Source: Nemertoderma westbladi (lineage: Eukaryota > Animalia > Xenacoelomorpha). From it: a stretch of 61,028 nucleotides of DNA. Positions 5,839-44,533 of this stretch are shown one piece after another (positions within the stretch are counted from its first letter, which is position 1; the number at the start of each line of letters is the position of its first letter). The stretch covers positions 1 through 61,028 of the forward strand of contig JAUCBJ010006294.1 in assembly GCA_032718475.1 (NCBI GenBank). Direction: 5' to 3'. The notes below the pieces were generated by a model, which was not told where the DNA came from, searched no databases, and saw only the letters and a list, made by a program, of their open reading frames with translations. The translations under genes were made by a program, and so were the position numbers.

Positions 5839-6014
5839 CACGACAAATGCAGCATTTGTGGGTACAAGATAGCACTAAGTATAGCATCACCCAAGTACTG
5901 GGACAACAACTACTACCCTGCGAACCGAGAAAGGTCAGAGAGAAAGGCTAGGAGTAGGCCTAAACTTAAGAGGAACCTAGGGACAGCGTCTGGTGTAGAG
6001 AGGTCTAGATCAAG
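5839..6014 (+). CDS. SPDY: Speedy/RINGO family, exon 4 (its last 38 nt are the first unit of the 71-bp array)
   Basis: ttttag|CAC, open frame HDKCSICGYK...GTASGVERSRS, including the CxxC that follows the Speedy box. Ends AAG|GTGAGA, phase 2. Confidence 0.8.
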
Positions 6015-7762
6015 GTGAGAAAGTTTCATAGCGTTAATATACCAGTACTAGGGACAGCGTCTGGTGTAGAGAGGTCTAGATCAAGGTGAGAAAGTTTCAT
6101 AGCGTTAATATACCAGTACTAGGGACAGCGTCTGGTGTAGAGAGGTCTAGATCAAGGTGAGAAAGTTTCATAGCGTTAATATACCAGTACTAGGGACAGC
6201 GTCTGGTGTAGAGAGATCTAGATCAAGGTGAGAAAGTTTCATAGCGTTAATATACCAGTACTAGGGACAGCGTCTGGTGTAGAGAGGTCTAGATCAAGGT
6301 GAGAAAGTTTCATAGCGTTAATATACCAGTACTAGGGACAGCGTCTGGTGTAGAGAGGTCTAGATCAAGGTGAGAAAGTTTCATAGCGTTAATATACCAG
6401 TACTAGGGACAGCGTCTGGTGTAGAGAGGTCTAGATCAAGGTGAGAAAGTTTCATAGCGTTAATATACCAGTACTAGGGACAGCGTCTGGTGTAGAGAGG
6501 TCTAGATCACAAGGTGAGAAAGTTTCATAGTGTTAATATACCAGTACTATGGACAGCGTCTGGTGTAGAGAGGTCTAGATCAAGGTGAGAAAGTTTCATA
6601 GCGTTAATATACCAGTACTAGGGACAGCGTCTGGTGTAGAGAGGTCTAGATCAAGGTGAGAAAGTTTCTTAGCGTTAATATACCAGTACTAGGGACAGCG
6701 TCTGGTGTAGAGAGGTCTAGATCAAGGTGAGAAAGTTTCATAGCGTTAATATACCAGTACTATGGACAGCGTCTGGTGTAGAGAGGTCTAGATCAAGGTG
6801 AGAACATTTCATAGCGTTAATATACCAGTACTAGGGACAGCGTCTGGTGTAGAGAGGTCTAGATCAAGGTGAGAAAGTTTCCTAGCGTTAATATACCAGT
6901 ACTAGGGACATCGTCTGGTTTAGAGAGGTCTAGATCACAAGGTGAGAAAGTTTCATAGCGTTAATATACCAGTACTAGGGACAGCGTCTGGTGTAGAGAG
7001 GTCTAGATCAAGGTGAGAAAGTTTCATAGCGTTAATATACCAGTACTAGGGACAGCGTCTGGTGTAGAGAGGTCTAGATCAAGGTGAGAAAGTTTCATAG
7101 CGTTAATATACCAGTACTAGGGACAGCGTCTGGTGTAGAGAGGTCTAGATCAAGGTGAGAAAGTTTCATAGCGTTAATATACCAGTACTAGGGACAGCGT
7201 CTGGTGTAGAGAGGTCTAGATCAAGGTGAGAAAGTTTCCTAGCGTTAATATACCAGTACTAGGGACATCGTCTGGTTTAGAGAGGTCTAGATCACAAGGT
7301 GAGAAAGTTTCATAGCGTTAATATACCAGTACTAGGGACAGCGTCTGGTGTAGAGAGGTCTAGATCAAGGTGAGAAAGTTTCATAGCGTTAATATACCAG
7401 TACTAGGGACAGCGTCTGGTGTAGAGAGGTCTAGATCAAGGTGAGAAAGTTTCATAGCGTTAATATACCAGTACTAGGGACAGCGTCTGGTGTAGAGAGG
7501 TCTAGATCAAGGTGAGAAAGTTTCATAGCGTTAATATACCAGTACTAGGGACAGCGTCTGGTGTAGAGAGGTCTAGATCAACGTGAGAAAGTTTCATAGC
7601 GTTAATATACCAGTACTAGGGACAGCGTCTGGTGTAGAGAGGTCTAGATCAAGGTGAGAAAGTTTCATAGCGTTAATATACCAGTACTAGGGACAGCGTC
7701 TGGTGTTGAGAGGTCTAGATCACAAGGTGAGAAAGTTTCATAGCGTTAATATACCAGTACTA
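5977..7762 (+). repeat. Tandem array, 71-bp unit x ~25, spanning the exon 4/intron junction
   Basis: Unit ctagggacagcgtctggtgtagagaggtctagatcaag|gtgagaaagtttcatagcgttaatataccagta; period measured 5981->6052. Confidence 0.97.
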
Positions 7763-8079
7763 TTATTATACTATTCATGTAATAAACTGTATATTGCTGT
7801 TACATAGGCCTAAAAAATATGCCGCACTGGGGTGCGGACCATAACAATATATTGCCGGTGTTCTCGGAAGGGAGTTGATGAAAGTCAAACCATGGTGTTG
7901 GACTTGCCCCGAGAGCTGATTCTTCAAAAAAACACCACCCAACCCCCACTATGGATTTTATTAGTATTGTAAGGTCCGGCCAGTAGAGACTAGTGGAATT
8001 CCCGGACACAATTTACCTCACAAGCGTCAGTTGTCTCATGACCGAGTGCCTGTCATACCCCTAATTGAGAGAGACCTAG

Positions 8080-9130
8080 CAGACAAGTTTCACTTTAGCG
8101 CCGTAGGCGTTCAAGAGCACAGAATGCTGACTGGGTAGATTGATGAGGTTCTGATTAATTGATAAGTATATGGGAGGTGGTTGGCTACAGATGTCAACAG
8201 ATGACATTGGTAATGGAGGAATTGATGAAACCATTGATGAAACTAACTGCACATGCAGGATGCAGCATTTCACAAAATAGACTAAATCACCAACCGCATC
8301 ATCCGTTGCCACTTGCCATGTTCTGGAAGACTGGCTAAGAAGTTTTCTATAGCGGTTCTGATTATGTGCTATTCACCAAGAGTTTTACTCCAGTAGAGGA
8401 GGTAGATATTTCTACCAGTCTACAAGCAGCTGCTGATGGAGTTGATCAGCATGCATTATTAACTTTCCTGGGTGACTTTAATGCAAATCTGCATCAGTCA
8501 ACCACATCGCCCTGGGTTTATCTATACCAATAGTGGTAACCGAAATTCCTTCCATCTTTAGGATTAAATATCTAGAAATGGTTTGTTTTCGGCTGTAACC
8601 CAGTTCAAGAAGCAAACAGGAAAGCCACGCGGACTTACACTGTACCAAATGGCCATAAGTCCCAGATAGTCTATATGCTATTTACACTTCATCCATTCTC
8701 CAGAGAACATTGTCTTATTAAGGCCAAGGTAATACATAGATAGGCTCGGAGCAAGCAGCACTAAGAAATCTGCCCCGCCAGGGCATGATTGGCCCTCTCT
8801 GTGCAACAGACCAGTGTAGATCCAGTTTCACACTACAGCTGAGAAACATGTATGAAAGGCTCTCATTCTGAGGTTTCAGATCACTGCTACGGATTGCTCT
8901 ACTGCTTTCACAGAAGCAGTTAAGTAAGTTAGCAGATGCCTTCCAAACAGAAGCTCATGTCCCCCTGGGCTGACCACAGAATTCTGAAGTGTTGAAAGGA
9001 CCTCTCTAAGGCGCAGTATGAGTCCTGCCAGCTCGGGCACACTAGATCTGCCAAGGATGCCGTTAAGGCTGCATCTACGTTCGTTAACAAGCACTACTCT
9101 GATAATCTGAAGGAGCTTATCAATAAGCAC
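8080..9130 (+). mobile_element. Degenerate non-LTR retrotransposon (LINE) remnant, AP-endonuclease region
   Basis: FLGDFNA at 8465-8485 and PNGHKSQI at 8645-8668 match LINE endonuclease motifs. Frames are broken and boundaries are approximate. Confidence 0.55.
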
Positions 9131-9194
9131 TACATTATTATAATAATCCTTTACAATTAATATATCTCTAACATTTATTTACTGTTTTCTTTAG

Positions 9195-9228
9195 CAACAA
9201 AAGACAGACTTCAACTCAGTCATATGGG
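9195..9228 (+). CDS. SPDY: Probable Speedy exon 5 (34 nt)
   Basis: ttttctttag| ... GGG|GTGAGT. Phase-2 start is compatible with exon 4 and the frame is open (SNKRQTSTQSYG). Further exons may lie at ~10232-10545 but are unresolved. Confidence 0.55.
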
Positions 9229-12200
9229 GTGAGTAGGCATATAAAGAAATAATACAGTTGGAGATCAAGTCACTACGTAGGTTTATTTTTACGACTAAAT
9301 GCCTCCCGGAAAGATCCCATTACAATAATGATGTAACTTTGATCAAGGGTTGTCTCGATATTTTGTAATATTGGCTCTTGAGTGATTAGGCTTAATTTTC
9401 GTAATTTTGTATAATTGGCAAGTATATTTGTTGTTTACAGTGGAGACACATTATTATAATGATTGCAAGTGCTCAATATTGGCCCTTAAACTAAATTATG
9501 AGATTCCACTGTAAAGAAGTTCAATAATTTCCACCAAATTCCACTTATTTGTTTTGATTTAACAATTGTTTATGATATGATACAGTATAAGATATATGAT
9601 ATAATGGGTACCTACATTTTTGGGAACAAGGGTTCTTGAGCTCGAAAAATCAGATAGGTGAGGTTACATGCCCCCGTTTAGTAAAGAAGTTGTGCAAATA
9701 AGCCAAAATGGTATTTAAATAGTTAAATAATTATACATATTTCCGTTGTTCTGGAAACCAATTGGTAACTATGTAAAACATTATAGTTCAGTCAATCGAT
9801 AGTCATTGGACTAAAGATTGTCTCTACCAAATTTTGGTAGAGACTATGTAGGACCTAAAATCCATGTTGCTAATGTTAGCAACAGGAAATTGCAAGTTAT
9901 CCGCATAATGCATATCATATTTTATAGATTTTTCGGGGTATTGGCAAGATAATGCAGAACAAATAAAATATGGTTCGTATGAATTGCGAATTAGTTTTGG
10001 GTTAGGCCTACTCACTCTTTTTTATTACATTGACTATAAAAAAGTACTTATTAGAGCAATGCATTTTTGCAATTTTGGTGAGTATGAAGGCAAAATGGTT
10101 TCAATGCAAGATGCTTTCAATGTAAAATACTATTATCGCAAAATGCCCACCCACATGAATTTCGAAATGGCACGCCTTCTTTTTAATATTTAAATTCTTT
10201 AAATTTGTCTAAGTTTTAATGTTTTGTCCAGACAGTTTCAAGCTGGGCTTCCGAAACAATCACGTCCCGTTCACTGAAAATTGTGATGGGCGGTTTAATT
10301 CCTTGTTGCATATATTGTGTCCTTGTCAGCTGCTAGTTTATGTTCAATTAAATGCCATTATTATATAAATTATACTGTAGGTTGTGCAGTCTGTGAACCG
10401 GCGAAGGCGAAATAAAGGCAAGTCACGCAAGGGCGTAAAGCGCAATAAACAAGATTCGGGAAAGTCTAGGGGACGTACAAGGAAAGGCTACAGCTGCAGT
10501 GGAACAAGTTCGATAGCTGAAACACCAGATAGTTTCACTTAAGAAAATTAAAGTAATGATCACCATTACACTAAGTAGAGGCCTAATGTAAACCATAGCG
10601 TCTACGTGACTACTTTATTGATCTTGTGAATTCGCATATCTTAGTGAAGTGATGTACGCCCTTTACATCGTCTGTGGAATAATATAATAAGAATGGTAGA
10701 ATCTAATACATTCATATACATAGATACTGAGAGCTGCTAGTTAACATACACTGAATATACCAATGTTATACAGTAACTCATTCAAGAAATACGCTTAGGC
10801 AGTGAAAGAGGTCCCAGAGGTAGCGTATTGAAAAAAATGAAAAATAGTAAAACTTTTTATTACGGAACTAGGGAATATATTAATAGTAACCTGTACACAG
10901 TAACGCAGTGTAAGCCTAAATATTTGCTAAATTTAAAATTGCTAGTGCTAGGATACCACATCTTACTTAACTGATCATAAATATTAAGTGGTGCATTCCA
11001 CAATATTAGCCTTATTCTGACAAAAATTTTTGTTTCAAACCTCACCCACTAATACGTTTTTCAAAAACAGCTGTGATGAGTATAGAATACGGCCATGATA
11101 GTGGAAAACCACACGTATCCATTTGTTACAAGATAATCAATAAGCAACAATGTACCATACTGTTACAATGTTTTTGATGGGCTACAGGCGGGACGGGACA
11201 AGTTTCACTGGGTAAATTAAAGCTAAATGTGGGACAAGTCCAGCCCTAGTAGGGGCTCACTACCTGTTAATTCATGATAAAAACATGTTGCCATGGTGTC
11301 GACACATTTCAGTGTAGCCTAGACTGTAGATACCAATTTAATTCAGTCTCATAGAAAAATCTTTGTTTCCACAATTAGTTTTTGAGTTAGTTAGTTTTAT
11401 GAGTTACTGAAAGTTAACATTATTAGGAACCGCCTACAGGTTACTGTATGTTACTTTCCTGTAAGTTTTGCTTAATTCTAGAAATAAAACCGTGTTGACA
11501 GTGAATGGAGCGACTGAGCGATCGAAATTAAAACGGCTCAAATTATTTTCCTAATTGTTTGACCATAGATACGTAGCCCAAATGTAAGGTCACCCGCGCT
11601 TTTCAGACCCAAGGGGCGAGTGGTCCACGAATGGGACGCTCTGATTGACCGTAACTGAAACTCGATAAATCCCATAGAATGACCCCATCTATGGGTCACG
11701 ATCCATAGTTAGGGCAGGGGTCTATAGGTATGGGAGTTCCCATATCGGCCAAAACCATGGAACATACTGTACTGTAATAAATCTCGACTAGACTTTAAAC
11801 GAAACTTATCCAGAGCATGCGAAGTAATGAGTTTAGTTGTGTGTTAGTTACAGTCTTGTGTGTTAGATCAGTCTTGTGAGTTACGGAAAATTGCATTATT
11901 GTGTGTTAGTTGCAGTCTTAAGATTTACTGAAAGTTACAGTCTGGTATGTTAGTCATAGTGTGTTGTGAGTTAGTTATCCAGCATTGCCTTGATTATTTT
12001 TTAAAAACTCTAGAAATCCGCAACGGCTTTTGATAATTAAACGGTATTTTTATATAGAATTTTCTATCATCTGAAAGGCCTTAGGACCATTTCTAAGGCC
12101 CATGTGATGAATACAAGACTTTTTGCCGTTATATTTCACTTTTCAGTTACCCCATGTGAAGAATACCAGATTTTTTTTTTTTACAAAAAATCAGGTTACA

Positions 12201-14629: not shown

Positions 14630-17600
14630 CCTAGATATGCAACAATCAGCTGGCCCTGGTAGCAGTCAGCTGATTAGTAACTACTAAGAACCCAGATATG
14701 CAACCAATAATCAGCTGGTAGCAGTCAGCTGATTAGTAACTACTAAGAACCCAGATATGCAACCGATAAATCAGCTGGTAGCAGTCAGCTGATTAGTACT
14801 AAGAACCCAGATATGCAACCGATAATCAGCTGGTAGCAGTCAGCTGATTAGTAACTACTACGAACCCAGATTTGCAACCAATAAATAGCTGGTAGCAGTC
14901 AGCTGATTAGTCACTACTAACAACCCAGATATGCAACCAATAATCTGCTGGTAGCAGTCAGCTGATTAGTAACTACTAAGAACCCAGATATGCAACCGAT
15001 AATCAGCTGGTAGCAGTCAGCTGATTAGTAACTACTAAGAACCCAGATATGCAACCAATAAATAGCTGGTAGCAGTCAGCTGATTAGGCACTACTAACAA
15101 CCCAGATATGCAACCAATATTCTGCTGGTAGCAGTCAGCTGATTAGTAACTACTAAGAACCCAGATATGCAACCGATAATCAGCTGGTAGCAGTCAGCTG
15201 ATTAGTAACTACTAAGAACCCAGATATGCAACCGATATTCAGCTGGTAACAGTCAGCTGATTAGTAACTACTACGAACCCAGATATGCAACCGATATTCA
15301 GCTGGTAGCAGTCAGCTGATTAGTAACTACTACGAACCCAGATATGCAACCAATAAATAGCTGGTAGCAGTCAGCTGATTAGTAACTACTAAGAACCCAG
15401 ATATGCAACCGATAATCAGCTGGTAGCAGTCAGCTGATTAGTAACTACTAAGAACTCAGATATGCAACCAATAATCAGCAGTCTGCTGATTAGTAACTAC
15501 TAAGAACCCAGATATGCAACCGATATTCAGCTGGTAGCAGTCAGCTGATTAGTAACTACTAAGAACCCAGATATGCAACCAATAATCAGCAGTCAGCTGA
15601 TTAGTAACTACTAAGAACCCAGATATGCAACCGATATTCAGCTGGTAGCAGTCAGCTGATTAGTAACTACTACGAACCCAGATATGCAACCAATAATCAG
15701 CTGGTAGCAGTCAGCTGATTAGTAACTACTAAGAACCCAGATATGCAACCGATATTCAGCTGGTAGCAGTCAGCTGATTAGTAACTACTACGAACCCAGA
15801 TATGCAACCAATAATCAGCTGGTAGCAGTCAGCTGATTAGTACTAAGAACCCAGATATGCAACCAATAATCAGCTGGTAGCAGTCAGCTGATTAGTACTA
15901 AGAACCCAGATATGCAACCGATATTCAGCTGGTAGCAGTCAGCTGATTAGTAACTACTACGAACCCAGATATGCAACCAATAATCAGCTGGTAGCAGTCA
16001 GCTGATTAGTACTAAGAACCCAGATATGCAACCAATAATCAGCTGGTAGCAGTCAGCTGATTAGTACTAAGAACCCAGATATGCAACCGATAATCAGCTG
16101 GTAGCAGTCAGCTGATTAGTAACTACTACGAACCCAGATATGCAACCAATAATCAGCTGGTAGCAGTCAGCTGATTAGTACTAAGAACCCAGATATGCAA
16201 CCGATAATCAGCTGGTAGCAGTCAGCTGATTAGTAACTACTAAGAACCCAGATATGCAACCGATAATCAGCTGGTAGCAGTCAGCTGATTAGTAACTACT
16301 AAGAACCCAGATATGCAACCAATAATCAGCTGGTAGCAGTCAGCTGATTAGTAACTACTAAGAACCCAGATTTGCAACCGATAAATCAGCTGGTAGCAGT
16401 CAGCTGATTAGTAACTACTAAGAACCCAGATATGCAACCGATATTCAGCTGGTAGCAGTCAGCTGATTAGTAACTACTACGAACCCAGATATGCAACCAA
16501 TAATCAGCTGGTAGCAGTCAGCTGATTAGTAACTACTAAGAACCCAGATATGCAACCGATAAATCAGCTGGTAGCAGTCAGCTGATTAGTAACTACTACG
16601 AACCCAGAAATGTAACCAATAATCAGCTGGTAGCAGTCAGCTGATTAGTACTAAGAACCCAGATATGCAACCGAAAATCAGCTGGTAGCAGTCAGCTGAT
16701 TAGTAACTACTAAGAACCCAGATATGCAACCAATAATCAGCTGGTAGCAGTCAGCTGCTTAGTACTAAGAACCCAGATATGCAACCGATAATCAGCTGGT
16801 AGCAGTCAGCTGATTAGTAACTACTAAGAACCCAGATATGCAACCAATAATCAGCTGGTAGCAGTCAGCTGATTAGTAACTACTAAGAACCCAGATATGC
16901 AACCGATAAATCAGCTGGTAGCAGTCGGCTGATTAGTAACTACTAAGAACCCAGATATGCAAATAATCAGCTGGTAGTGGTCAGCTGATTAGTAACTACT
17001 AAGAACCCAGATATGCAACCAATAATCAGCAGTCAGCTGATTAGTAACTACTAGGAACCCAGATATGCAACCGATAATCAGCTGGTAGCAGTCAGCTGAT
17101 TAGTAACTACTAAGAACCCAGATATGCAACCAATAATCAGCAGTCAGCTGATTAGTAACTACTAGGAACCCAGATATGCAACCGATAATCAGCTGGTAGC
17201 AGTCAGCTGATTAGTAACTACTAAGAACCCAGATATGCAACCGATAAATCAGCTGGTAGCAGTCAGCTGATTAGTAACTACTAAGAACCCAGATATGCAA
17301 CCGATAATCAGCTGGTAGCAGTCAGCTGATTAGTAACTACTAAGAACCCAGATATGCAACCGATAATCAGCTGGTAGCAGTCAGCTGATTAGTAACTACT
17401 AAGAACCCAGATATGCAACCAATAATCAGCAGTCAGCTGATTAGTAACTACTAGGAACCCAGATATGCAACCGATAATCAGCTGGTAGCAGTCAGCTGAT
17501 TAGTAACTACTAAGAACCCAGATATGCAAATAATCAGCTGGTAGTGGTCAGCTGATTAGTAACTACTAAGAACCCAGATATGCAACCAATAATCAGCAGT

Positions 17601-20600
17601 CAGCTGATTAGTAACTACTAGGAACCCAGATATGCAACCGATAATCAGCTGGTAGCAGTCAGCTGATTAGTAACTACTAAGAACCCAGATATGCAAATAA
17701 TCAGCTGGTAGTGGTCAGCTGATTAGTAACTACTAAGAACCCAGATATGCAACCGATAATCAGCAGTCAGCTGATTAGTAACTACTAAGAACCCAGATAT
17801 GCAACCAATAATCAGCTGGTAGCAGTCAGCTGATTAGTAACTACTAAGAACCCAGATATGCAACCGATAAATCAGCTGGTAGCAGTCAGCTGATTAGTAA
17901 CTACTAAGAACCCAGATATGCAACCGATAATCAGCTGGTAGCAGCCAGCTGATGAGTAACTACTAAGAACCCAGATATGCAACCGATAAATCAGCTGGTA
18001 GCAGTCAGCTGATTAGTAACTACTAAGAACCCAGATATGCAACCGATAATCAGCTGGTAGCAGTCAGCTGATTAGTAACTACTAAGAACTCAGATATGCA
18101 ACCAATAATCAGCAGTCAGCTGATTAGTAACTACTAAGAACCCAGATATGCAACCAATAATCAGCTGGTAGCAGTCAGCTGATTAGTAACTACTAAGAAC
18201 CCAGATATGCAACCGATAAATCAGCTGGTAGCAGTCAGCTGATTAGTAACTACTAAGAACCCAGATATGCAACCGATAATCAGCTGGTAGCAGTCAGCTG
18301 ATGAGTAACTACTACGAACCCAGATATGCAACCAATAATCAGCTGGTAGCAGTCAGCTGATTAGTAACTACTAAGAACCCAGATATGCAACCAATAATCA
18401 GCTGGTAGCAGTCAGCTGATTAGTAACTACTAAGAACCCAGATATGCAACCGATAAATCAGCTGGTAGCAGTCAGCTGATTAGTAACTACTACGAACCCA
18501 GATATGCAACCAATAATCAGCTGGTAGCAGTCAGCTGATTAGTACTAAGAACCCAGATATGCAACCGAAAATCAGCTGGTAGCAGTCAGCTGATTAGTAA
18601 CTACTAAGAACCCAGATATGCAACCAATAATCAGCTGGTAGCAGTCAGCTGCTTAGTACTAAGAACCCAGATATGCAACCGATAATCAGCTGGTAGCAGT
18701 CAGCTGATTAGTAACTACTAAGAACCCAGATATGCAACCAATAATCAGCTGGTAGCAGTCAGCTGATTAGTAACTACTAAGAACCCAGATATGCAACCGA
18801 TAAATCAGCTGGTAGCAGTCAGCTGATTAGTAACTACTAAGAACCCAGATATGCAACCGATAATCAGTTGGTAGCAGTCAGCTGATTAGTAACTACTAAG
18901 AACCCAGATATGCAACCAATAATCAGCTGGTAGCAGTCAGCTGATTAGTAACTACTAAGAACCCAGATATGCAACCGATAAATCAGCTGGTAGCAGTCAG
19001 CTGATTAGTAACTACTAAGAACCCAGATATGCAAATAATCAGCTGGTAGTGGTCAGCTGATTAGTAACTACTAAGAACCCAGATATGCAACCAATAATCA
19101 GCAGTCAGCTGATTAGTAACTACTAGGAACCCAGATATGCAACCGATAATCAGCTGGTAGCAGTCAGCTGATTAGTAACTACTAAGAACCCAGATATGCA
19201 ACCAATAATCAGCAGTCAGCTGATTAGTAACTACTAGGAACCCAGATATGCAACCGATAATCAGCTGGTAGCAGTCAGCTGATTAGTAACTACTAAGAAC
19301 CCAGATATGCAACCGATAAATCAGCTGGTAGCAGTCAGCTGATTAGTAACTACTAAGAACCCAGATATGCAACCAATAATCAGCTGGTAGCAGTCAGCTG
19401 ATTAGTAACTACTAAGAACCCAGATATGCAACCGATAATCAGCTGGTAGCAGTCAGCTGATTAGTAACTACTAAGAACTCAGATATGCAACCAATAATCA
19501 GCAGTCAGCTGATTAGTAACTACTAAGAACCCAGATATGCAACCAATAATCAGCTGGTAGCAGTCAGCTGATTAGTAACTACTAAGAACCCAGATATGCA
19601 AGCAATAATCAGCAGTCAGCTGATTAGTAACTACTAGGAACCCAGATATGCAACCAATAATCAGCTGGTAGCAGTCAGCTGATTAGTAACTACTAAGAAC
19701 CCAGATATGCAAATAATCAGCTGGTAGTGGTCAGCTGATTAGTAACTACTAAGAACCCAGATATGCAACCAATAATCAGCAGTCAGCTGATTAGTAACTA
19801 CTAGGAACCCAGATATGCAACCGATAATCAGCTGGTAGCAGTCAGCTGATTAGTAACTACTAAGAACCCAGATATGCAAATAATCAGCTGGTAGTGGTCA
19901 GCTGATTAGTAACTACTAAGAACCCAGATATGCAACCGATAATCAGCAGTCAGCTGATTAGTAACTACTAAGAACCCAGATATGCAACCAATAATCAGCT
20001 GGTAGCAGTCAGCTGATTAGTAACTACTAAGAACCCAGATATGCAACCGATAAATCAGCTGGTAGCAGTCAGCTGATTAGTAACTACTAAGAACCCAGAT
20101 ATGCAACCGATAATCAGCTGGTAGCAGTCAGCTGATGAGTAACTACTAAGAACCCAGATATGCAACCGATAAATCAGCTGGTAGCAGTCAGCTGATTAGT
20201 AACTACTAAGAACCCAGATATGCAACCGATAATCAGCTGGTAGCAGTCAGCTGATTAGTAACTACTAAGAACTCAGATATGCAACCAATAATCAGCAGTC
20301 AGCTGATTAGTAACTACTAAGAACCCAGATATGCAACCAATAATCAGCTGGTAGCAGTCAGCTGATTAGTAACTACTAAGAACCCAGATATGCAACCGAT
20401 AAATCAGCTGGTAGCAGTCAGCTGATTAGTAACTACTAAGAACCCAGATATGCAACCGATAATCAGCTGGTAGCAGTCAGCTGATGAGTAACTACTACGA
20501 ACCCAGATATGCAACCAATAATCAGCTGGTAGCAGTCAGCTAATTAGTAACTACTAAGAACCCAGATATGCAACCAATAATCAGCTGGTAGCAGTCAGCT

Positions 20601-24849: not shown

Positions 24850-25071
24850 CTAAACAAATTTATAAATAATAATGAACCAACTTTTCTTCGATTTCATACG
24901 TAGTACACGTCATATCTCCTGGAATATACCCTAATGAGATAATTTACCTCCCGCTTTCTCACTTGGTGAGTCAGAATTTGTATTCATGCTCTCAAACTTA
25001 AGTGTTAAAAATGATATGTCGTCGATAAATTCCAGTCGTACTAGCTGTGCCTCATACCATGCCAACCATTG

Positions 25072-25609: not shown

Positions 25610-25684
25610 CTAAAATATAATAGGAATATAAAGTATAACAAGAATCATAAAAACAAAGTTAATCTAGTATTCCTCAAAAGTACC

Positions 25685-31435: not shown

Positions 31436-31441
31436 AATTAA

Positions 31442-31558
31442 TCGTGCACCACCACCACCACCATCGTGCACCTGCGTGCACCACTGTCTGCACCAGTGTC
31501 TGTACCACTGTCTGCACCAGGTGTCTGCACCACTGTCTGCTCTGCACCACTGTCTGCT
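31442..31558. repeat. Low-complexity short tandem repeat (caccactgtctg-like)
   Basis: Several ~12-bp units plus an (acc)n run. Confidence 0.75.
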
Positions 31559-31750
31559 TAACGTCTACACCCAATGGAGGGAGATATTAGGATTAGCTTA
31601 AAGACAGCTCTTCGATATAAATGCAAAGCCGCAATGACACCTATAATAGCTGGAAGACAAAAAGGACAAAAAACAAATACCGACAGAAATAAAGTAAAGG
31701 CAACTAACTGTTTATTACATTACAAAATACATGGGGATACTAACGTTTAC

Positions 31751-31964
31751 TACCAAAACGGAAACGACCGGGACTTGCTGCAGCCCGCGGGGTCCCTGGA
31801 TCGGTTGATTGGCGGAAATGGTGGAGGTATAGGCCGGGTCCGTTCCGGGCGGGGCTCAGCATTGGTGGGGGCGTATAGGGGGGACTGGAGCCGGGGAACC
31901 GGGGCGAACGAAGGTGCGAGATATACCGAGGGAGGCAGGCTGAGTACGGCGTCGATGTATTCAC
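31751..31964 (-). CDS. TRERF1: TRERF1-like exon with conserved YxSHLRSP...PYTPPPMLSP.R.G.GL motif
   Basis: ctgtag|GTG, phase 0. RYISHLRSPRFPGSSPPYTPPPMLSPARNGPGLY. Two possible phase-1 donors (exon end 31754 or 31751). Confidence 0.9.
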
Positions 31965-32020
31965 CTACAGGACAAATGTTATTGAGATAAATATGGAAGA
32001 AATATATCCAAAATATTTAC

Positions 32021-35000
32021 CTTCGTTGGGTATATTTAGTGGCTCCGGTATGTGGCGTTCTCTAAACTTACTTCGTTGGGTATATTTAGTGGCTCCGGTA
32101 TGTGGCGTTCTCTAAACTTACTTCGTTGGGTATATTTAGTGGCTCCGGTATGTGGCGTTCTCTAAACTTACTTCGTTGGGTATATTTAGTGGCTCCGGTA
32201 TGTGGCGTTCTCTAAACTTACTTCGTTGGGTATATTTAGTGGCTCCGGTATGTGGCGTTCTCTAAACTTACTTCGTTGGGTATATTTAGTGGCTCCGGTA
32301 TGTGGCGTTCTCTAAACTTACTTCGTTGGGTATATTTAGTGGCTCCGGTATGTGGCGTTCTCTAAACTTACTTCGTTGGGTATATTTAGTGGCTCCGGTA
32401 TGTGGCGTTCTCTAAACTTACTTCGTTGGGTATATTTAGTGGCTCCGGTATGTGGCGTTCTCTAAACTTACTTCGTTGGGTATATTTCGTGGCTCCGGTA
32501 TGTGGCGTTCTCTACACTTACTTCGTTGGGTATATTTAGTGGCTCCGGTATGTGGCGTTCTCTAAACTTACTTCGTTGGGTATATTTAGTGGCTCCGGTA
32601 TGTGGCGTTCTCTAAACTTTCTTCGTTGGGGTTATTTAGTGGCTCCGGTATGTGGCGTTCTCTAAACTTACTTCGTTGGGTATATTTAGTGGCTCCGGTA
32701 TGTGGCGTTCTCTAAACTTACTTCGTTGGGTATATTTAGTGGCTCCGGTATGTGGCGTTCTCTAAACTTACTTCGTTGGGTATATTTAGTGGCTCCGGTA
32801 TGTGGCGTTCTCTAAACTTACTTCGTTGGGTATATTTAGTGGCTCCGGTATGTGGCGTTCTCTAAACTTACTTCGTTGGGTATATTTAGTGGCTCCGGTA
32901 TGTGGCGCTCTCTCAACTTACTTCATTGGGTATATTTAGTGGCTCCGGTATGTGGCGTTCTCTAAACTTACTTCGTTGGGTATATTTAGTGGCTCCGGTA
33001 TGTGGCGTTCGCTAAACTTACTTCGTTGGGTATATTTAGTGGCTCCGGTATGTGGCGTTCTCTAAACTTACTTCTTGGGTATATTTAGTGGCTCGGTATG
33101 TGGCGTTCTCTAAACTTACTTCGTTGGGTATATTTAGTGGCTCCGGTATGTGGCGTTCTCTAAACTTACTTCGTTGGGTATATTTAGTGGCTCCGGTATG
33201 TGGCGTTCTCTAAACTTACTTCGTTGGGTATATTTAGTGGCTCCGGTATGTGGCGTTCTCTAAACTTACTTCATTGGGTATATTTAGTGGCTCGGTATGT
33301 GGCGTTCTCTAAACTTACTTCGTTGGGTATATTTAGTGGCTCAGGTATGTGGCGTTCTCTAAACATACTTCGTTGGGGTTATTTAGTGGCTCCGGTATGT
33401 GGCATTCTCTAAACTTACTTCGTTAGGTATATTTAGTGGCTCCGGTATGTGGCGTTCTCTAAACTTACTTTGTTGGGTATATTTAGTGGCTCGGTATGTG
33501 GCGTTCTCTAAACTTACTTCGTTGGGTATATTTAGTGGCTCAGGTATGTGGCGTTCTCTAAACTTACTTCGTTGGGGTTATTTAGTGGCTCCGGTATGTG
33601 GCGTTCTCTAAACTTACTTCGTTGGGTATATTTAGTGGCTCCGGTATGTGGCATTCTCTAAACTTACTTCGTTAGGTATATTTAGTGGCTCCGGTATGTG
33701 GCGTTCTCTAAACTTACTTCGTTGGGTATATTTAGTGGCTCAGGTATGTGGCGTTCTCTAAACTTACTTCGTTGGGGTTATTTAGTGGCTCCGGTATGTG
33801 GCATTCTCTAAACTTACTTCGTTAGGTATATTTAGTGGCTCCGGTATGTGGCGTTCTCTAAACTTACTTCGTTGGGGTTATTTAGTGGCTCAGGTATGTG
33901 GCGTTCTCTAAACTTACTTCGTTGGGGTTATTTAGTGGCTCCGGTATGTGGCATTCTCTAAACTTACTTCGTTAGGTATATTTAGTGGCTCCGGTATGTG
34001 GCGTTCTCTAAACTTACTTCGTTGGGTATATTTAGTGGCTCCGGTATGTGGCGTTCTCTAAACTTACTTCGTTGGGGTTATTTAGTGGCTCAGGTATGTG
34101 GCGTTCTCTAAACTTACTTCGTTGGGGTTATTTAGTGGCTCCGGTATGTGGCATTCTCTAAACTTACTTCGTTAGGTATATTTAGTGGCTCCGGTATGTG
34201 GCGTTCTCTAAACTTACTTCGTTGGGGTTATTTAGTGGCTCCGGTATGTGGCGTTCTCTAAACTTACTTCGTTGGGGTTATTTAGTGGCTCCGGTATGTG
34301 GCGTTCTCTAAACTTACTTCGTTGGGTATATTTAGTGGCTCCGGTATGTGGCATTCTCTAAACTTACTTCGTTGGGTATATTTAGTGGCTCCGGTATGTG
34401 GCGTTCTCTAAACTTAGTCCTTTAGGTATATTTAGTGGCTCCGGTATGTGGCGCTCTCTAAACTTACTTCGTTGGGTATATTTAGTGGCTCCGGTATGTG
34501 GCGTTCTCTAAACTTACTTCGTTGGGTATATTTAGTGGCTCCGGTATGTGGCGTTCTCTAAACTTACTTCGTTAGGTATATTTAGTGGCTCCGGTATGTG
34601 GCGTTCTCTAAACTTACTTCGTTGGGGTTATTTAGTGGCTCAGGTATGTGGCGTTCTCTAAACTTACTTCGTAGGGTATATTTAGTGGCTCCGGTATGTG
34701 GCGTTCTCTAAACTTTCTTCGTTGGGTATATTTAGTGGCTCCGGTATGTGGCGTTCTCTAAACTTACTTCGTTGGGTATATTTAGTGGCTCCGGTATGTG
34801 GCGTTCTCTAACTTACTTCGTTAGGTATATTTAGTGGCTCCGGTATGTGGCGTTCTCTAAACTTACTTCGTTGGGGTTATTTAGTGGCTCCGGTATGTGG
34901 CATTCTCTAAACTTACTTCGTTAGGTATATTTAGTGGCTCCGGTATGTGGCGTTCTCTAAACTTACTTCGTTGGGGTTATTTAGTGGCTCCGGTATGTGG

Positions 35001-38000
35001 CATTCTCTAAACTTACTTCGTTAGGTATATTTAGTGGCTCCGGTATGTGGCGTTCTCTAAACTTACTTCGTTGGGGTTATTTAGTGGCTCAGGTATGTGG
35101 CGTTCTCTAAACTTACTTCGTTGGGGTTATTTAGTGGCTCCGGTATGTGGCATTCTCTAAACTTACTTCGTTAGGTATATTTAGTGGCTCCGGTATGTGG
35201 CGTTCTCTAAACTTACTTCGTTGGGTATATTTAGTGGCTCCGGTATGTGGCGTTCTCTAAACTTACTTCGTTGGGTATATTTAGTGGCTCCGGTATGTGG
35301 CGTTCTCTAAACTTACTTCGTTGGGGTTATTTAGTGGCTCCGGTATGTGGCGTTCTCTAAACTTACTTCGTTGGGTATATTTAGTGGCTCCGGTATGTGG
35401 CGTTCTCTAAACTTACTTCGTTGGGGTTATTTAGTGGCTCCGGTATGTGGCATTCTCTAAACTTACTTCGTTAGGTATATTTAGTGGCTCCGGTATGTGG
35501 CGTTCTCTAAACTTACTTCGTTGGGGTTATTTAGTGGCTCAGGTATGTGGCGTTCTCTAAACTTACTTCGTTGGGGTTATTTAGTGGCTCCGGTATGTGG
35601 CATTCTCTAAACTTACTTCGTTAGGTATATTTAGTGGCTCCGGTATGTGGCGTTCTCTAAACTTACTTCGTTGGGGTTATTTAGTGGCTCCGGTATGTGG
35701 CGTTCTCTAAACTTACTTCGTTGGGTATATTTCGTGGCTCCGGTATGTGGCGTTCTCTAAACTTACTTCGTTGGGTATATTTAGTGGCTCCGGTATGTGG
35801 CATTCTCTAAACTTACTTCGTTAGGTATATTTAGTGGCTCCGGTATGTGGCGTTCTCTAAACTTACTTCGTTGGGGTTATTTAGTGGCTCCGGTATGTGG
35901 CGTTCTCTAAACTTACTTCGTTGGGGTTATTTAGTGGCTCCGGTATGTGGCGTTCTCTAAACTTACTTCGTTGGGTATATTTAGTGGCTCCGGTATGTGG
36001 CATTCTCTAAACTTACTTCGTTGGGTATATTTAGTGGCTCCGGTATGTGGCGTTCTCTAAACTTAGTCCTTTAGGTATATTTAGTGGCTCCGGTATGTGG
36101 CGCTCTCTAAACTTACTTCGTTGGGTATATTTAGTGGCTCCGGTATGTGGCGTTCTCTAACTTACTTCGTTGGGTATATTTAGTGGCTCCGGTATGTGGC
36201 GTTCTCTAAACTTACTTCGTTGGGTATATTTAGTGGCTCCGGTATGTGGCTTTCTCTAAACTTACTTCGTTGGGTATATTTAGTGGCTCCGGTATGTGGC
36301 GCTCTCTCAACTTACTTCATTGGGTATATTTAGTGGCTCCGGTATGTGGCGTTCTCTAAACTTACTTCGTTGGGTATATTTAGTGGCTCCGGTATGTGGC
36401 GTTCTCTAAACTTACTTCGTTGGGTATATTTAGTGGCTCCGGTATGTGGCTTTCTCTAAACTTACTTCGTTGGGTATATTTAGTGGCTCCGGTATGTGGC
36501 GCTCTCTCAACTTACTTCGTTGGGTATATTTAGTGGCTCCGGTATGTGGCTTTCTCTAAACTTACTTCGTTGGGTATATTTAGTGGCTCCGGTATGTGGC
36601 GTTCTCTAAACTTACTTCGTTGGGTATATTTAGTGGCTCCGGTATGTGGCGTTCTCTAAACTTACTTCGTTGGGTATATTTAGTGGCTCCGGTATGTGGC
36701 GTTCTCTAAACTTAGTCCTTTAGGTATATTTAGTGGCTCCGGTATGTGGCGCTCTCTAAACTTACTTCGTTGGGTATATTTAGTGGCTCCGGTATGTGGC
36801 GTTCTCTAAACTTACTTCGTTGGGTATATTTAGTGGCTCCGGTATGTGGCGTTCTCTAAACTTACTTCGTTGGGTATATTTAGTGGCCCCGGTATGTGGC
36901 GTTCTCTAAACTTACTTCGTTGGGTATATTTAGTGGCTCGGTATGTGGCGTTCTCTAAACTTACTTCGTTGGGTATATTTAGTGGCTCCGGTATGTGGCG
37001 TTCTCTAAACTTACTTCATTGGGTATATTTAGTGGCTCCGGTATGTGGCGCTCTCTAAACTTACTTCGTTGGGTATATTTAGTGGCTCCGGTATGTGGCG
37101 TTCTCTAAACTTACTTCGTTGGGTATATTTAGTGGCTCCGGTATGTGGCGTTCTCTAAACTTACTTCGTTGGGTATATTTAGTGGCTCCGGTATGTGGCG
37201 TTCTCTAAACTTACTTCGTTGGGTATATTTAGTGGCTCCGGTATGTGGCGTTCTCTAAACTTACTTCGTTGGGTATATTTAGTGGCTCCGGTATGTGGCG
37301 TTCTCTAAACTTACTTCGTTGGGTATATTTAGTGGCTCCGGTATGTGGCGTTCTCTAATCTTACTTCGTTGGGTATATTTAGTGGCTCCGGTATGTGGCG
37401 CTCTCTCAACTTACTTCATTGGGTATATTTAGTGGCTCCGGTATGTGGCGTTCTCTAAACTTACTTCGTTGGGTATATTTAGTGGCTCCGGTATGTGGCG
37501 TTCTCTAAACTTACTTCGTTGGGTATATTTAGTGGCTCCGGTATGTGGCGTTCTCTAAACTTACTTCGTTGGGTATATTTAGTGGCTCCGGTATGTGGCG
37601 TTCTCTAATCTTACTTCGTTGGGTATATTTAGTGGCTCCGGTATGAGGCGTTCTCTAAACTTACTTCGTTAGGTATATTTAGTGGCTCCGGTATGTGGCG
37701 TTCTCTAACTTACTTCGTTGGGTATATTTAGTGGCTCCGGTATGTGGCGTTCTCTAAACTTACTTCGTTGGGTATATTTAGTGGCTCCGGTATGTGGCGC
37801 TCTCTCAACTTACTTCATTGGGTATATTTAGTGGCTCCGGTATGTGGCGTTCTCTAAACTTACTTCGTTGGGTATATTTAGTGGCTCCGGTATGTGGCTT
37901 TCTCTAAACTTACTTCGTTGGGTATATTTAGTGGCTCCGGTATGTGGCGCTCTCTCAACTTACTTCATTGGGTATATTTAGTGGCTCCGGTATGTGGCGT

Positions 38001-41000
38001 TCTCTAAACTTACTTCGTTGGGTATATTTAGTGGCTCCGGTATGTGGCGTTCTCTAAACTTACTTCGTTGGGTATATTTAGTGGCTCCGGTATGTGGCGT
38101 TCTCTAAACTTACTTCGTTGGGTATATTTAGTGGCTCCGGTATGTGGCGTTCTCTAAACTTACTTCGTTGGGTATATTTAGTGGCTCCGGTATGTGGCGT
38201 TCTCTAAACTTACTTCGTTGGGTATATTTAGTGGCTCCGGTATGTGGCTTTCTCTAAACTTACTTCGTTGGGTATATTTAGTGGCTCCGGTATGTGGCGT
38301 TCTCTAAACTTACTTCGTTGGGTATATTTAGTGGCTCCGGTATGTAGCGTTCTCTAAACTTACTTCGTTGGGTATATTTAGTGGCTCCGGTATGTGGCGT
38401 TCTCTAAACTTACTTCGTTGGGTATATTTAGTGGCTCCGGTATGTGGCGTTCTCTAATCTTACTTCGTTGGGTATATTTAGTGGCTCCGGTATGTGGCGT
38501 TCTCTAACTTACTTCGTTGGGTATATTTAGTGGCTCCGGTATGTGGCGTTCTCTAAACTTACTTCGTTGGGTATATTTAGTGGCTCCGGTATGTGGCGTT
38601 CTCTAAACTTACTTCGTTGGGTATATTTAGTGGCTCCGGTATGTGGCGTTCTCTAACTTACTTCGTTGGGTATATTTAGTGGCTCCGGTATGTGGCGTTC
38701 TCTAAACTTACTTCGTTGGGTATATTTAGTGGCTCCGGTATGTGGCGTTCTCTAAACTTACTTCGTTGGGTATATTTAGTGGCTCCGGTATGTGGCGTTC
38801 TCTAAACTTACTTCGTTGGGTATATTTAGTGGCTCCGGTATGTGGCGTTCTCTAACTTACTTCGTTGGGTATATTTAGAAGCTCCGGTATGTGGCGTTCT
38901 CTAAACTTACTTCGTTGGGTATATTTAGTGGCTCCGGTATGTGGCGTTCTCTAACTTACTTCGTTGGGTATATTTAGTGGCTCCGGTATGTGGCGTTCTC
39001 TAAACTTACTTCGTTGGGTATATTTAGTGGCTCCGGTATGTGGCGTTCTCTAACTTACTTCGTTGGGTATATTTAGTGGCTCCGGTATGTGGCGTTCTCT
39101 AAACTTACTTCGTTGGGTATATTTAGTGGCTCCGGTATGTGGCGTTCTCTAAACTTACTTCGTTGGGTATATTTAGTGGCTCCGGTATGTGGCGTTCTCT
39201 AAACTTACTTCGTTGGGTATATTTAGTGGCTCCGGTATGTGGCGTTCTCTAAACTTACTTCGTTGGGTATATTTAGTGGCTCCGGTATGTGGCGTTCTCT
39301 AAACTTACTTCGTTGGGTATATTTAGTGGCTCCGGTATGTGGCGTTCTCTAACTTACTTCGTTGGGTATATTTAGAAGCTCCGGTATGTAGCGTTCTCTA
39401 AACTTACTTCGTTGGGTATATTTAGTGGCTCCGGTATGTGGCGTTCTCTAAACTTACTTCGTTGGGTATATTTAGTGGCTCCGGTATGTGGCGTTCTCTA
39501 ACTTACTTCGTTGGGTATATTTAGAAGCTCCGGTATGTAGCGTTCTCTAAACTTACTTCGTTGGGTATATTTAGTGGCTCCGGTATGTGGCGTTCTCTAA
39601 CTTACTTCGTTGGGTATATTTAGAAGCTCCGGTATGTAGCGTTCTCTAAACTTACTTCGTTGGGTATATTTAGTGGCTCCGGTATGTGGCGTTCTCTAAA
39701 CTTACTTCGTTGGGTATATTTAGTGGCTCCGGTATGTGGCGTTCTCTCAACTTACTTCGTTGGGTATATTTAGTGGCTCCGGTATGTGGCGTTCTCTAAA
39801 CTTACTTCGTTGGGTATATTTAGTGGCTCCGGTATGTGGCGTTCTCTAAACTTACTTCGTTGGGTATATTTAGTGGCTCCGGTATGTGGCGTTCTCTAAC
39901 TTACTTCGTTGGGTATATTTAGTGGCTCCGGTATGTGGCGTTCTCTAAACTTACTTCGTTGGGTATATTTAGTGGCTCCGGTATGTGGCGTTCTCTAAAC
40001 TTACTTCGTTGGGTATATTTAGTGGCTCCGGTATGTGGCGTTCTCTAAACTTACTTCGTTGGGTATATTTAGTGGCTCCGGTATGTGGCGTTCTCTAAAC
40101 TTACTTCGTTGGGTATATTTAGTGGCTCCGGTATGTGGCGTTCTCTAAACTTACTTCGTTGGGTATATTTAGTGGCTCCGGTATGTGGCGTTCTCTAAAC
40201 TTACTTCGTTGGGTATATTTAGTGGCTCCGGTATGTAGCGTTCTCTAAACTTACTTCGTTGGGTATATTTAGTGGCTCCGGTATGTGGCGTTCTCTAAAC
40301 TTACTTCGTTGGGTATATTTAGTGGCTCCGGTATGTGGCGTTCTCTAATCTTACTTCGTTGGGTATATTTAGTGGCTCCGGTATGTGGCGTTCTCTAACT
40401 TACTTCGTTGGGTATATTTAGTGGCTCCGGTATGTGGCGTTCTCTAAACTTACTTCGTTGGGTATATTTAGTGGCTCCGGTATGTGGCGTTCTCTAAACT
40501 TACTTCGTTGGGTATATTTAGTGGCTCCGGTATGTGGCGTTCTCTAACTTACTTCGTTGGGTATATTTAGTGGCTCCGGTATGTGGCGTTCTCTAAACTT
40601 ACTTCGTTGGGTATATTTAGTGGCTCCGGTATGTGGCGTTCTCTAAACTTACTTCGTTGGGTATATTTAGTGGCTCCGGTATGTGGCGTTCTCTAAACTT
40701 ACTTCGTTGGGTATATTTAGTGGCTCCGGTATGTGGCGTTCTCTAACTTACTTCGTTGGGTATATTTAGAGGCTCCGGTATGTGGCGTTCTCTAAACTTA
40801 CTTCGTTGGGTATATTTAGTGGCTCCGGTATGTGGCGTTCTCTAACTTACTTCGTTGGGTATATTTAGTGGCTCCGGTATGTGGCGTTCTCTAAACTTAC
40901 TTCGTTGGGTATATTTAGTGGCTCCGGTATGTGGCGTTCTCTAACTTACTTCGTTGGGTATATTTAGTGGCTCCGGTATGTGGCGTTCTCTAAACTTACT

Positions 41001-44000
41001 TCGTTGGGTATATTTAGTGGCTCCGGTATGTGGCGTTCTCTAAACTTACTTCGTTGGGTATATTTAGTGGCTCCGGTATGTGGCGTTCTCTAAACTTACT
41101 TCGTTGGGTATATTTAGTGGCTCCGGTATGTGGCGTTCTCTAAACTTACTTCGTTGGGTATATTTAGTGGCTCCGGTATGTGGCGTTCTCTAAACTTACT
41201 TCGTTGGGTATATTTAGTGGCTCCGGTATGTGGCGTTCTCTAACTTACTTCGTTGGGTATATTTAGAAGCTCCGGTATGTAGCGTTCTCTAAACTTACTT
41301 CGTTGGGTATATTTAGTGGCTCCGGTATGTGGCGTTCTCTAAACTTACTTCGTTGGGTATATTTAGTGGCTCCGGTATGTGGCGTTCTCTAACTTACTTC
41401 GTTGGGTATATTTAGAAGCTCCGGTATGTAGCGTTCTCTAAACTTACTTCGTTGGGTATATTTAGTGGCTCCGGTATGTGGCGTTCTCTAACTTACTTCG
41501 TTGGGTATATTTAGAAGCTCCGGTATGTAGCGTTCTCTAAACTTACTTCGTTGGGTATATTTAGTGGCTCCGGTATGTGGCGTTCTCTAAACTTACTTCG
41601 TTGGGTATATTTAGTGGCTCCGGTATGTGGCGTTCTCTAAACTTACTTCGTTGGGTATATTTAGTGGCTCCGGTATGTGGCGTTCTCTAAACTTACTTCG
41701 TTGGGTATATTTAGTGGCTCCGGTATGTGGCGTTCTCTAAACTTACTTCGTTGGGTATATTTAGTGGCTCCGGTATGTGGCGTTCTCTAACTTACTTCGT
41801 TGGGTATATTTAGTGGCTCCGGTATGTGGCGTTCTCTAAACTTACTTCGTTGGGTATATTTAGTGGCTCCGGTATGTGGCGTTCTCTAAACTTACTTCGT
41901 TGGGTATATTTAGTGGCTCCGGTATGTGGCGTTCTCTAAACTTACTTCGTTGGGTATATTTAGTGGCTCCGGTATGTGGCGTTCTCTAAACTTACTTCGT
42001 TGGGTATATTTAGTGGCTCCGGTATGTGGCGTTCTCTAAACTTACTTCGTTGGGTATATTTAGTGGCTCCGGTATGTGGCGTTCTCTAAACTTACTTCGT
42101 TGGGTATATTTAGTGGCTCCGGTATGTGGCGTTCTCTAAACTTACTTCGTTAGGTATATTTAGTGGCTCCGGTATGTGGCGTTCTCTAAACTTACTTCGT
42201 TGGGTATATTTAGTGGCTCCGGTATGTGGCGTTCTCTAAACTTACTTCGTTGGGTATATTTAGTGGCTCCGGTATGTGGCGTTCTCTAACTTACTTCGTT
42301 GGGTATATTTAGTGGCTCCGGTATGTGGCGTTCTCTAAACTTAATTCGGTGTGTATATTTAGTGGCTCCGGTATGTGGCGTTCTCTAAACTTACTTCGTT
42401 GGGTATATTTAGTGGCTCCGGTATGTGGCGTTCTCTAAACTTACTTCATTGGGTATATTTAGTGGCTCCGGTATGTGGCGTTCTCTAAACTTACTTCGTT
42501 GGGTATATTTAGTGGCTCCGGTATGTGGCGTTCTCTAAACTTACTTCGTTGGGTATATTTAGTGGCTCCGGTATGTGGCGTTCTCTAAACTTACTTCGTT
42601 AGGTATATTTCGTGGCTCCGGTATGTGGCGCTCTCTAAACTTACTTCGTTGGGTATATTTAGTGGCTCCGGTATGTGGCGTTCTCTAAACTTACTTCGTT
42701 GGGTATATTTAGTGGCTCCGGTATGTGGCGTTCTCTAAACTTACTTCATTGGGTATATTTAGTGGCTCCGGTATGTGGCTTTCTCTAAACTTACTTCATT
42801 GGGTATATTTAGTGGCTCCGGTATGTGGCGTTCTCTAAACTTACTTCGTTGGGTATATTTAGTGGCTCCGGTATGTGGCGTTCTCTAAACTTACTTCGTT
42901 GGGTATATTTAGTGGCTCCGGTATGTGGCGTTCTCTAAACTTACTTCGTTGGGTATATTTAGTGGCTCCGGTATGTGGCGTTCTCTAAACTTACTTCGAT
43001 GGGTATATTTAGTGGCTCCGGTATGTGGCGTACTCTAAACTTACTTCGTTGGGTATATTTAGTGGCCCCGGTATGTGACGTTCTCTAAACTTACTTCGTT
43101 AGGTATATTTCGTGGCTCCGGTATGTGGCGTTCTCTAAACTTACTTCGATGGGTATATTTAGTGGCTCCGGTATGTGGCGTACTCTAAACTTACTTCGTT
43201 GGGTATATCTAGTGGCTCCGGTATGTGGCGTTCTCTAAACTTACTTCGTTGGGTATATTTAGTGGCTCCGGTATGTGGCGTTCTCTAAACTTACTTCGTT
43301 GGGTATATTTAGTGGCTCCGGTATGTGGCGTTCTCTAAACTTACTTCGTTGGGTATATTTAGTGGCTCCGGTATGTGGCGTACTCTAAACTTACTTCGTT
43401 GGGTATATCTAGTGGCTCCGGTATGTGGCGTACTCTAAACTTACTTCGTTGGGTATATCTAGTGGCTCCGGTATGTGGCGTACTCTAAACTTACTTCGTT
43501 GGGTATATCTAGTGGCTCCGGTATGTGGCGTTCTCTAAACTTACTTCGTTGGGTATATTTAGTGGCTCCGGTATGTGGCGTTCTCTAAACTTACTTCGTT
43601 AGGTATATTTCGTGGCTCCGGTATGTGGCGTTCTCTAAACTTACTTCGATGGGTATATTTAGTGGCTCCGGTATGTGGCGTACTCTAAACTTACTTCGTT
43701 GGGTATATCTAGTGGCTCCGGTATGTGGCGTTCTCTAAACTTACTTCGTTGGGTATATTTAGTGGCCCCGGTATGTGACGTTCTCTAAACTTACTTCGTT
43801 AGGTATATTTCGTGGCTCCGGTATGTGGCGTTCTCTAAACTTACTTCGTTGGGTATATTTAGTGGCTCCGGTATGTGGCGTTCTCTAAACTTACTCCGTT
43901 GGTATATTTAGTGGCTCCGGTATGTGGTGTTCTCTAAACTTACTTCGTTGGGTATATTTAGTGGCTCCGGTATGTGGTGTTCTCTAAACTTACTTCGTTG

Positions 44001-44533
44001 GGTATATTTAGTGGCTCGGTATGTGGCGTTCTCTAAACTTACTTCGTTGGGTATATTTAGTGGCTCCGGTATGTGGCGTTCTCTAAACTTACTTCGTTGG
44101 GTATATTTAGTGGCTCCGGTATGTGGCGTTCTCTAAACTTACTTCGTTGGGTATATTTAGTGGCTCCGGTATGTGGTGTTCTCTAAACTTACTTCGTTGG
44201 GTATATTTAGTGGCTCCGGTATGTGGTGTTCTCTAAACTTACTTCGTTGGGTATATTTAGTGGCTCGGTATGTGGCGTTCTCTAAACTTACTTCATTGGG
44301 TATATTTAGTGGCTCCGGTATGTGGCGTTCTCTCAACTTACTTCGTTGGGTATATTTAGTGGCTCCGGTATGTGGCGTTCTCTCAACTTACTTCGTTGGG
44401 TATATTTAGTGGCTCCGGTATGTGGCGTTCTCTAAACTTACTTCGTTGGGTATATTTAGTGGCTCCGGTATGTGGCGTTCTCTAAACTTACTTCGTTGGG
44501 TATATTTAGTGGCTCCGGTATGTGGCGTTCTCT
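32021..44533 (-). repeat. Tandem array, 50-bp unit x ~250 (12.5 kb): 42 nt of exon + GTAAGTTT
   Basis: Minus-strand unit AGAGAACGCCACATACCGGAGCCACTAAATATACCCAACGAA|GTAAGTTT. The first unit is the 3' end of the coding exon. Confidence 0.98.

Follow-up and report, generated by a model that had tools for sequence, protein, structure and literature searches.

Tandem arrays of copies of 5' splice sites span exon–intron boundaries in two animal genes, with the first donor used at three of them in assembled RNA

The window analysed here, by which we mean the whole stretch of 61,028 nt of animal DNA, carries two genes on opposite strands, and about half of it (30,905/61,028 nt) is tandem repeat. Gene 1, on the forward strand, has exons at 4874–5029, 5282–5407, 5839–6014, 9195–9228 and 10381–10542 with a reading frame that is open to a stop. 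Gene 2, on the reverse strand, has 13 modelled exons running from 60380 to 24745, with C2H2 finger, ELM2 and SANT domains recognised by Pfam. Tandem arrays were called with Tandem Repeats Finder (TRF), and four of them lie across splice donors of these genes. Array A (5977–7762, forward strand) consists of 25.0 copies of a 71 bp unit and lies in gene 1, whereas the other three lie on the reverse strand in gene 2: array B (25685–30225) has 94.4 copies of 48 bp, array C (32021–44533) has 250.9 copies of 50 bp, and array D (25045–25304) has 11.4 copies of 22 bp. We refer to A, B and C as intact and to D as decayed. The TRF calls confirm a first-pass annotation of the sequence, which had described three arrays with units of 71, 48 and 50 bp in two genes on opposite strands.

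The array A unit comprises the last 38 nt of the gene 1 exon 5839–6014 together with the first 33 nt of the intron that follows, and the two ends of this array have a 3-nt microhomology in common. The array C unit is made up of the last 42 nt of the gene 2 exon 44492–44698 and 8 intron nt, that of array D of about 9 exon nt and 13 intron nt, and that of array B of 2 exon nt and 46 intron nt. The terminal unit crosses the exon–intron boundary in A, C and D, and in B does so only marginally. It had been proposed that the arrays begin exactly at the junction; this describes B well, with its 2 exon nt, but A, C and D start 38, 42 and about 9 nt inside the exon.

Each intact array reiterates the donor of the adjoining exon, as had been noted previously. 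GTGAGA is present in 25/25 units of array A and is preceded by AAG in 24 of them, and GTAAGT is present in 239/250 units of array C. Array B, with about 95 units, contains GTAAGT 79 times, GTCAGT in 15 units and ATAAGT in 1. The donors of the upstream exons, at 6014/6015 for array A, 30224/30223 for array B and 44492/44491 for array C, are the first copies of their arrays. The fourth array, which had been reported as a decayed example at 25295, shares the geometry: it opens at the donor 25296/25295, and its 10 downstream copies keep a 22-nt register and are identical to the junction unit at 14–17 of 22 positions. It does not share the reiterated splice signal, since a GTRAG-type donor was found in none of these downstream copies. 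Array A accounts for 55% of intron 6015–9194, where the unique remainder is 1,432 nt, and array D for 56% of intron 24850–25295 (unique remainder 195 nt). Arrays B and C make up 98.4% of intron 25610–30223 and 99.6% of intron 31965–44491, with unique remainders of 75 nt and 56 nt, respectively.

Searching with 20-mers of the A, B and C units at up to 3 mismatches gave no matches elsewhere in the window. A dispersed-repeat origin for these three arrays was rejected within the window on this basis, and their units therefore appear to be local in origin. The core motif of array D, which we take to resemble the RFX X-box, is matched weakly at six sites beyond the array compared with 1.14 expected in the whole window; because of these matches D is less certain, and it is the least secure of the four cases. 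Two further sites adjoin the arrays on the reverse strand. At 32015–32021 the final copy of array C meets a diverged donor-like site that is offset by one base, and this is probably the original intron start that escaped homogenisation. Beside array D, the segment 24942–25042 is open over 100 nt and its ends resemble an acceptor and a donor; it is either intron or a poison exon, because its inclusion would shift the SANT frame.

Five sequencing runs contain the stretch with an LRRC40-like gene that is described below. None of them is recorded as RNA and one, X1, is recorded as 'DNA?'. Since X1 contigs join exons across GT..AG introns, we took this run to be RNA; its contigs also leave unique intron sequence uncovered. 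At array A, a 683-nt X1 contig is spliced from 5407 to 5839 across a GT..AG intron, ends at 6014 and then enters the exon from 9195, the start found in the loose end of the contig being the predicted start of the next gene 1 exon (9195–9228, forward strand). At array B, a 1,486-nt X1 contig spans 30224–30478 of the ELM2 exon (30224–30481, reverse strand; Pfam ELM2 E = 1.8e-5), and its match stops at the first donor. At array C, the same 1,486-nt contig contains 44 unit letters (42 from the exon and 2 that are shared) ahead of the exon from 31964, and past these letters it leaves the unit sequence; this exon (31745–31964, reverse strand) matches MIDEAS and in X1 is spliced at both of its ends. 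Depth per bin in X1 agrees exactly with ends at 6014, at 30224 and after 44 unit letters. The first donor is used in the main mRNA represented by the X1 contigs at A, B and C, which bears out the earlier suggestion that these junctions are functional. The intron parts of later copies have no cover in X1, although contigs cannot show absence. For array D the junction is predicted: the reading frame of exon 25296–25609 (reverse strand; ELM2/SANT, with a MIDEAS match at E = 1.6e-6 and a Pfam Myb match) runs open into exon 24745–24849, and reading frame and homology agree in placing it there.

Use of donor 2 leads to a stop codon at A and C, and use of donor 3 does so at B. The first unit of array B (30176–30223, reverse strand) is a variant that lacks the stop codon which the consensus unit carries in frame. 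This stop-free variant is found in 17/94 units, all of them within the first 35, so its presence as the first unit may be chance, and no isoform carrying the insertion that donor 2 of B would produce was seen in X1.

With the first donors in use, gene 2 has a single open frame through its last seven exons, and it matches MIDEAS both in exon 25296–25609 (with the E-value given above) and in the frame across array C (E = 1.9e-4). The proposal that the first copy gives the conserved protein is thus borne out for the MIDEAS-like gene 2, and weakly supported for gene 1, where Pfam gives a weak Spy1 match (E = 0.088). Gene 1 also has Atlas matches of 0.79–0.80, which we treat as a lead only, and a PDB search with one of its exons returned two matches, both at chance level; its sequence is possibly that of a Speedy/RINGO-like protein. 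A search of metagenome contigs for relatives of the ELM2/SANT exon gave 218 pattern matches, none of which was confirmed. Exons 1–8 of gene 2 are predicted only, and their modelled frame is interrupted between exons 5 and 6. A predicted candidate exon of 40 nt at 56109–56148 (reverse strand) restores the frame and ends in an unusual GC donor.

To score arrays at splice sites, we took the 22-mer spanning a junction and looked for copies of it in the neighbouring 400 nt, with a threshold of at least five copies at 16/22 or better. Arrays were found at 4/16 donors and at 0/18 acceptors (Fisher p = 0.039, or 0.094 without D), one acceptor having a single 16/22 match. The earlier count of four cases among roughly 16 donors was therefore reproduced on our exon model, in which the total of 16 is approximate owing to the frame break in gene 2 and one odd GC donor at 56108. 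The arrays extend only downstream, again as first described, since the best upstream match to any junction 22-mer is no higher than 14/22.

Placement was assessed against a null in which each array was collapsed to one unit and positioned at random over non-coding or donor-spanning positions, with a coding 42-bp array left out. Four of the seven large arrays lie on donors, compared with 0.16 expected (0.21 under a GC-matched null), giving P(≥4) = 7e-6 to 2e-5. The corresponding values are 5e-5 to 1.3e-4 when four small repeats are added, and 3.5e-4 to 2.5e-3 when only three arrays are counted. Taken over all variants of uniform placement, the expected number on donors is 0.16–0.3. GC-rich exon ends were rejected as the cause of the donor excess, since they raise the expectation only from 0.16 to 0.21. 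The excess is striking in the window but is not established for the genome, because the window was picked for its pattern and three of the cases lie in one gene.

The arrays that lie off donors have units of 59, 19, 31 and 42 bp. The 19 bp array (45518–47517, 106 copies) and the 31 bp array (56196–56760, 18 copies) are in gene 2 introns, clear of modelled splice sites, and the 42-bp repeat (48230–48807, reverse strand, 13.8 copies) is in frame in a large predicted exon of gene 2, where it encodes 14-residue repeats. The 59-bp satellite (14656–24496, about 140 + 9 copies) has a donor-free unit and extends from about 250 nt beyond the gene 2 stop. Its interruption at 22695–23876 is a 1.18-kb element, presumably hAT-like, that has terminal inverted repeats of 18 bp and a target duplication of 8 bp.

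The four are independent donor-spanning arrays of the type termed 'mirages' in lancelets, and at three of them assembled RNA shows splicing from the first donor; we think it likely that all four are tolerated and without function. Each would have been seeded by a local duplication of 22–71 nt across a donor, and unequal exchange or slippage would then have amplified and homogenised the array, multi-unit block duplications included. Within array C, 867 nt recurs exactly at a lag of 1891, and within array B a variant block of 555 nt recurs at a lag of 481; long-lag variant blocks of this kind are as expected from unequal exchange. Because ordered variant blocks fit unequal exchange, the sequence suggests that single-unit rolling-circle copying is not needed. 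The cost of such arrays would be low, because the spliceosome would choose the most upstream donor and the extra copies would leave with the intron, while selection would remove most other duplications that reach into an exon. Arrays B and C probably owe their persistence to their position: they lie between two essential exons and leave only 75 and 56 nt of unique intron, respectively, so that a large deletion of either would hardly be possible without damage to a splice site. Persistence of this kind would by itself concentrate arrays at donors, even if mutation were unbiased. The first-pass annotation had offered a selective filter as one option, and it fits both the RNA contigs and minigene experiments on human F7 (PMC1557585).

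Several observations weigh against this interpretation. The RNA support consists of one run and one contig per gene, and since rare variants are lost from contigs, a low level of splicing from later donors could escape. At array B, 185 contig letters past 30224 are not displayed, and donor 2 of this array would give an open in-frame insertion of 16 residues in the ELM2 region. A filter alone also leaves unexplained why 4/7 arrays lie on donors when 0.16–0.21 are expected. The main rival reading is a mutational bias that seeds duplications at exon–intron junctions, the arrays again being functionless and their position reflecting birthplace as well as survival. Breaks or slippage tied to transcription, pausing coupled to splicing, or the GC step at exon ends could be its source. 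We regard such a bias as rather unlikely. The in-window donor excess is about 20-fold and is barely lowered by the GC-matched null, array B starts no more than 2 nt from the donor, and three of the last four gene 2 introns are affected; lancelet mirages, too, have been called a possibly general phenomenon of 5' and 3' boundaries (PMC3087553). However, the window was chosen for its pattern from a scan of about 250,000 windows, and the result would be expected once per 400–2,900 windows without D (at least three arrays) and once per 7,700–143,000 with D. Three cases in one gene, in a window that is half tandem repeat, may not be independent, and upstream borders 2, 9, 38 and 42 nt into the exon indicate no fixed cut site. 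A bolder version holds that exon ends are hotspots for satellite seeding, so that donor-born arrays, strongly favouring donors over acceptors, are a main genome-wide engine of intron expansion and short introns of 60–120 nt grow a hundredfold by taking up repeats of their own donor. Taken as a whole we find this doubtful; if true, the genome would offer a naturally occurring trial, on a large scale, of how a first donor is chosen over hundreds of identical copies. A donor excess that held throughout the genome would indicate a way for introns to grow that has yet to be quantified, and would distinguish mutation biased towards junctions from survival between exons that are essential.

That the arrays serve a function, whether by loading U1 small nuclear ribonucleoprotein (snRNP) against premature polyadenylation, by regulation coupled to nonsense-mediated decay (NMD) or by stepwise splicing, seems to us quite improbable. 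Retention of GTAAGT in 239/250 C units and in 79 of about 95 B units might be read in favour of a function, as might the premature stops that follow from later donors or the in-frame insertion from B donor 2. Donor retention follows, however, from the 96–97% homogeneity of the arrays, and the donor bases vary like the rest of the unit: positions +1 to +6 are variable in 6/18 cases compared with 43/151 for other unit positions (Fisher p = 0.78). The donor-weakening variant GTCAGT has spread to 15/94 B units and the downstream copies of D have no donors. The absence of X1 cover over the intron parts of later copies points the same way, within the limits of contigs noted above. U1 telescripting, in which U1 binding suppresses intronic polyadenylation, would act in introns that here are long only because of the arrays. 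A recursive splicing site consists of a pyrimidine tract and an AG acceptor directly before GT; the arrays were rejected as such sites, given that GT is preceded by TT in B units and by AA in C units rather than by AG, and that A has AG but is purine-rich upstream. The functional role put forward in the first-pass annotation thus found no support. That the arrays are assembly artefacts is scarcely credible, and as far as their presence is concerned this reading is largely refuted. In its favour, array lengths come from the assembly, no short-read contig spans an array, and exact lengths (12.5 kb for C) are therefore not confirmable from such contigs. Against it, the DNA runs X3 and X4 both contain unit-to-unit contigs at high depth and, among the borders that fall within two tested stretches, both borders of array A, the upstream border of array B and the downstream border of array C. 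X4 departs from the window sequence at 13 of the sites listed for 4780–6125 and so represents a second haplotype with the arrays, and 11, 14 and 46 distinct unit variants occur in ordered blocks in the arrays.

X3 has no substitutions listed at unique sites and may be the source of the window. Contig depth over array A units was about 223–230 in X3, where flanks had 6–13, and 135–147 in X4, where flanks had 20–26; this hints that the copy number of array A differs between the two, contig depth itself being no copy number. The intron stretch 30661–31598 has very high contig depth in the DNA runs and corresponds to high-copy dispersed repeats.

The LRRC40-like gene (51069–52847, forward strand) is intronless, encodes 592 aa and is nested antisense within a 6-kb intron of gene 2; it is possibly a retrocopy. 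Of 7,989 candidates scored in a search with its product, 393 matched at E ≤ 1e-50, and the best 120 of the 393 are 43–48% identical and, where named, come from deuterostomes and lophotrochozoans. In a quick tree built from the window protein together with 33 of these 120, it fell on a long branch without clear affinity.

The array class itself is ordinary. It had at first been thought to be no named class of repeat, but it has been both named and published, as lancelet 'mirages' and as donor-spanning minisatellites of human genes; what the window adds is quantitative, namely scale and density. Published reports describe mirages as minisatellite-like tandem duplications across an exon–intron boundary, with several per genome, including those at Adh3, the globins BflGb6 and BflGb9, troponin C and PGBD5, and with units of 10–160 bp, normal splicing, unstable length and concerted evolution from which the boundary copies diverge (PMC3087553, PMC3902484). 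Mirages and the arrays described here are alike in that the terminal unit of a tandem array crosses the exon–intron boundary and splicing is normal. Mirages are found at both 5' and 3' boundaries, their origin being described as unclear (PMC3087553), whereas the window arrays lie at 4/16 donors and 0/18 acceptors. The BflGb6 mirage has 3–6 units; the arrays here reach 251 units (12.5 kb) and occupy 98–99.6% of two introns. The host is, moreover, not a lancelet, its LRRC40 protein forming the long unplaced branch mentioned above. No genome-wide count of donor-spanning arrays was found in the literature searched, a body of work outside which most subscription papers lie.

In the Rogers model of intron gain (cited in PMC3087553), tandem duplication of an AG/GT proto-splice site likewise yields intron sequence composed of tandem copies that hold splice signals. 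In that model the copies supply both donor and acceptor, whereas the introns of the window keep a unique acceptor outside the array. Since a unique acceptor lies outside each array, existing introns were inflated rather than created, and intron creation of the Rogers type was rejected, the acceptors lying in the unique remainders of 56, 75, 195 and 1,432 nt.

Among human genes, one study describes a 37-bp variable number tandem repeat (VNTR) in F7 intron 7 that is unstable in length and in which the donor of exon 7 lies within the first unit (4 exon and 33 intron nt); minigenes with up to 12 units, expressed in mammalian cells, are spliced from the donor that lies furthest upstream (PMC1557585). 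The F7 repeat most resembles array B, with few exon nt in the unit (4 compared with 2), identical pseudo-donors downstream and use of the most upstream donor. F7 has 5–9 units, compared with 25–251 in arrays A–C, and first-donor use was shown there by minigene mutagenesis and here by assembled contigs of one run. The same study lists the human genes 6-16, CBS (intron 13), LMNB2 and PDGF (intron 4), in which the intron after the donor repeats it 10–25 times; in LMNB2 and PDGF the authentic donor alone is used, whereas 6-16 and CBS also use the next two copies (PMC1557585). The contigs at A–C show no such additional use, although they drop rare forms. With about 240 identical donor copies at 50-nt spacing, of which the first is still used, array C extends the first-donor rule of F7 (5–12 copies) more than tenfold.

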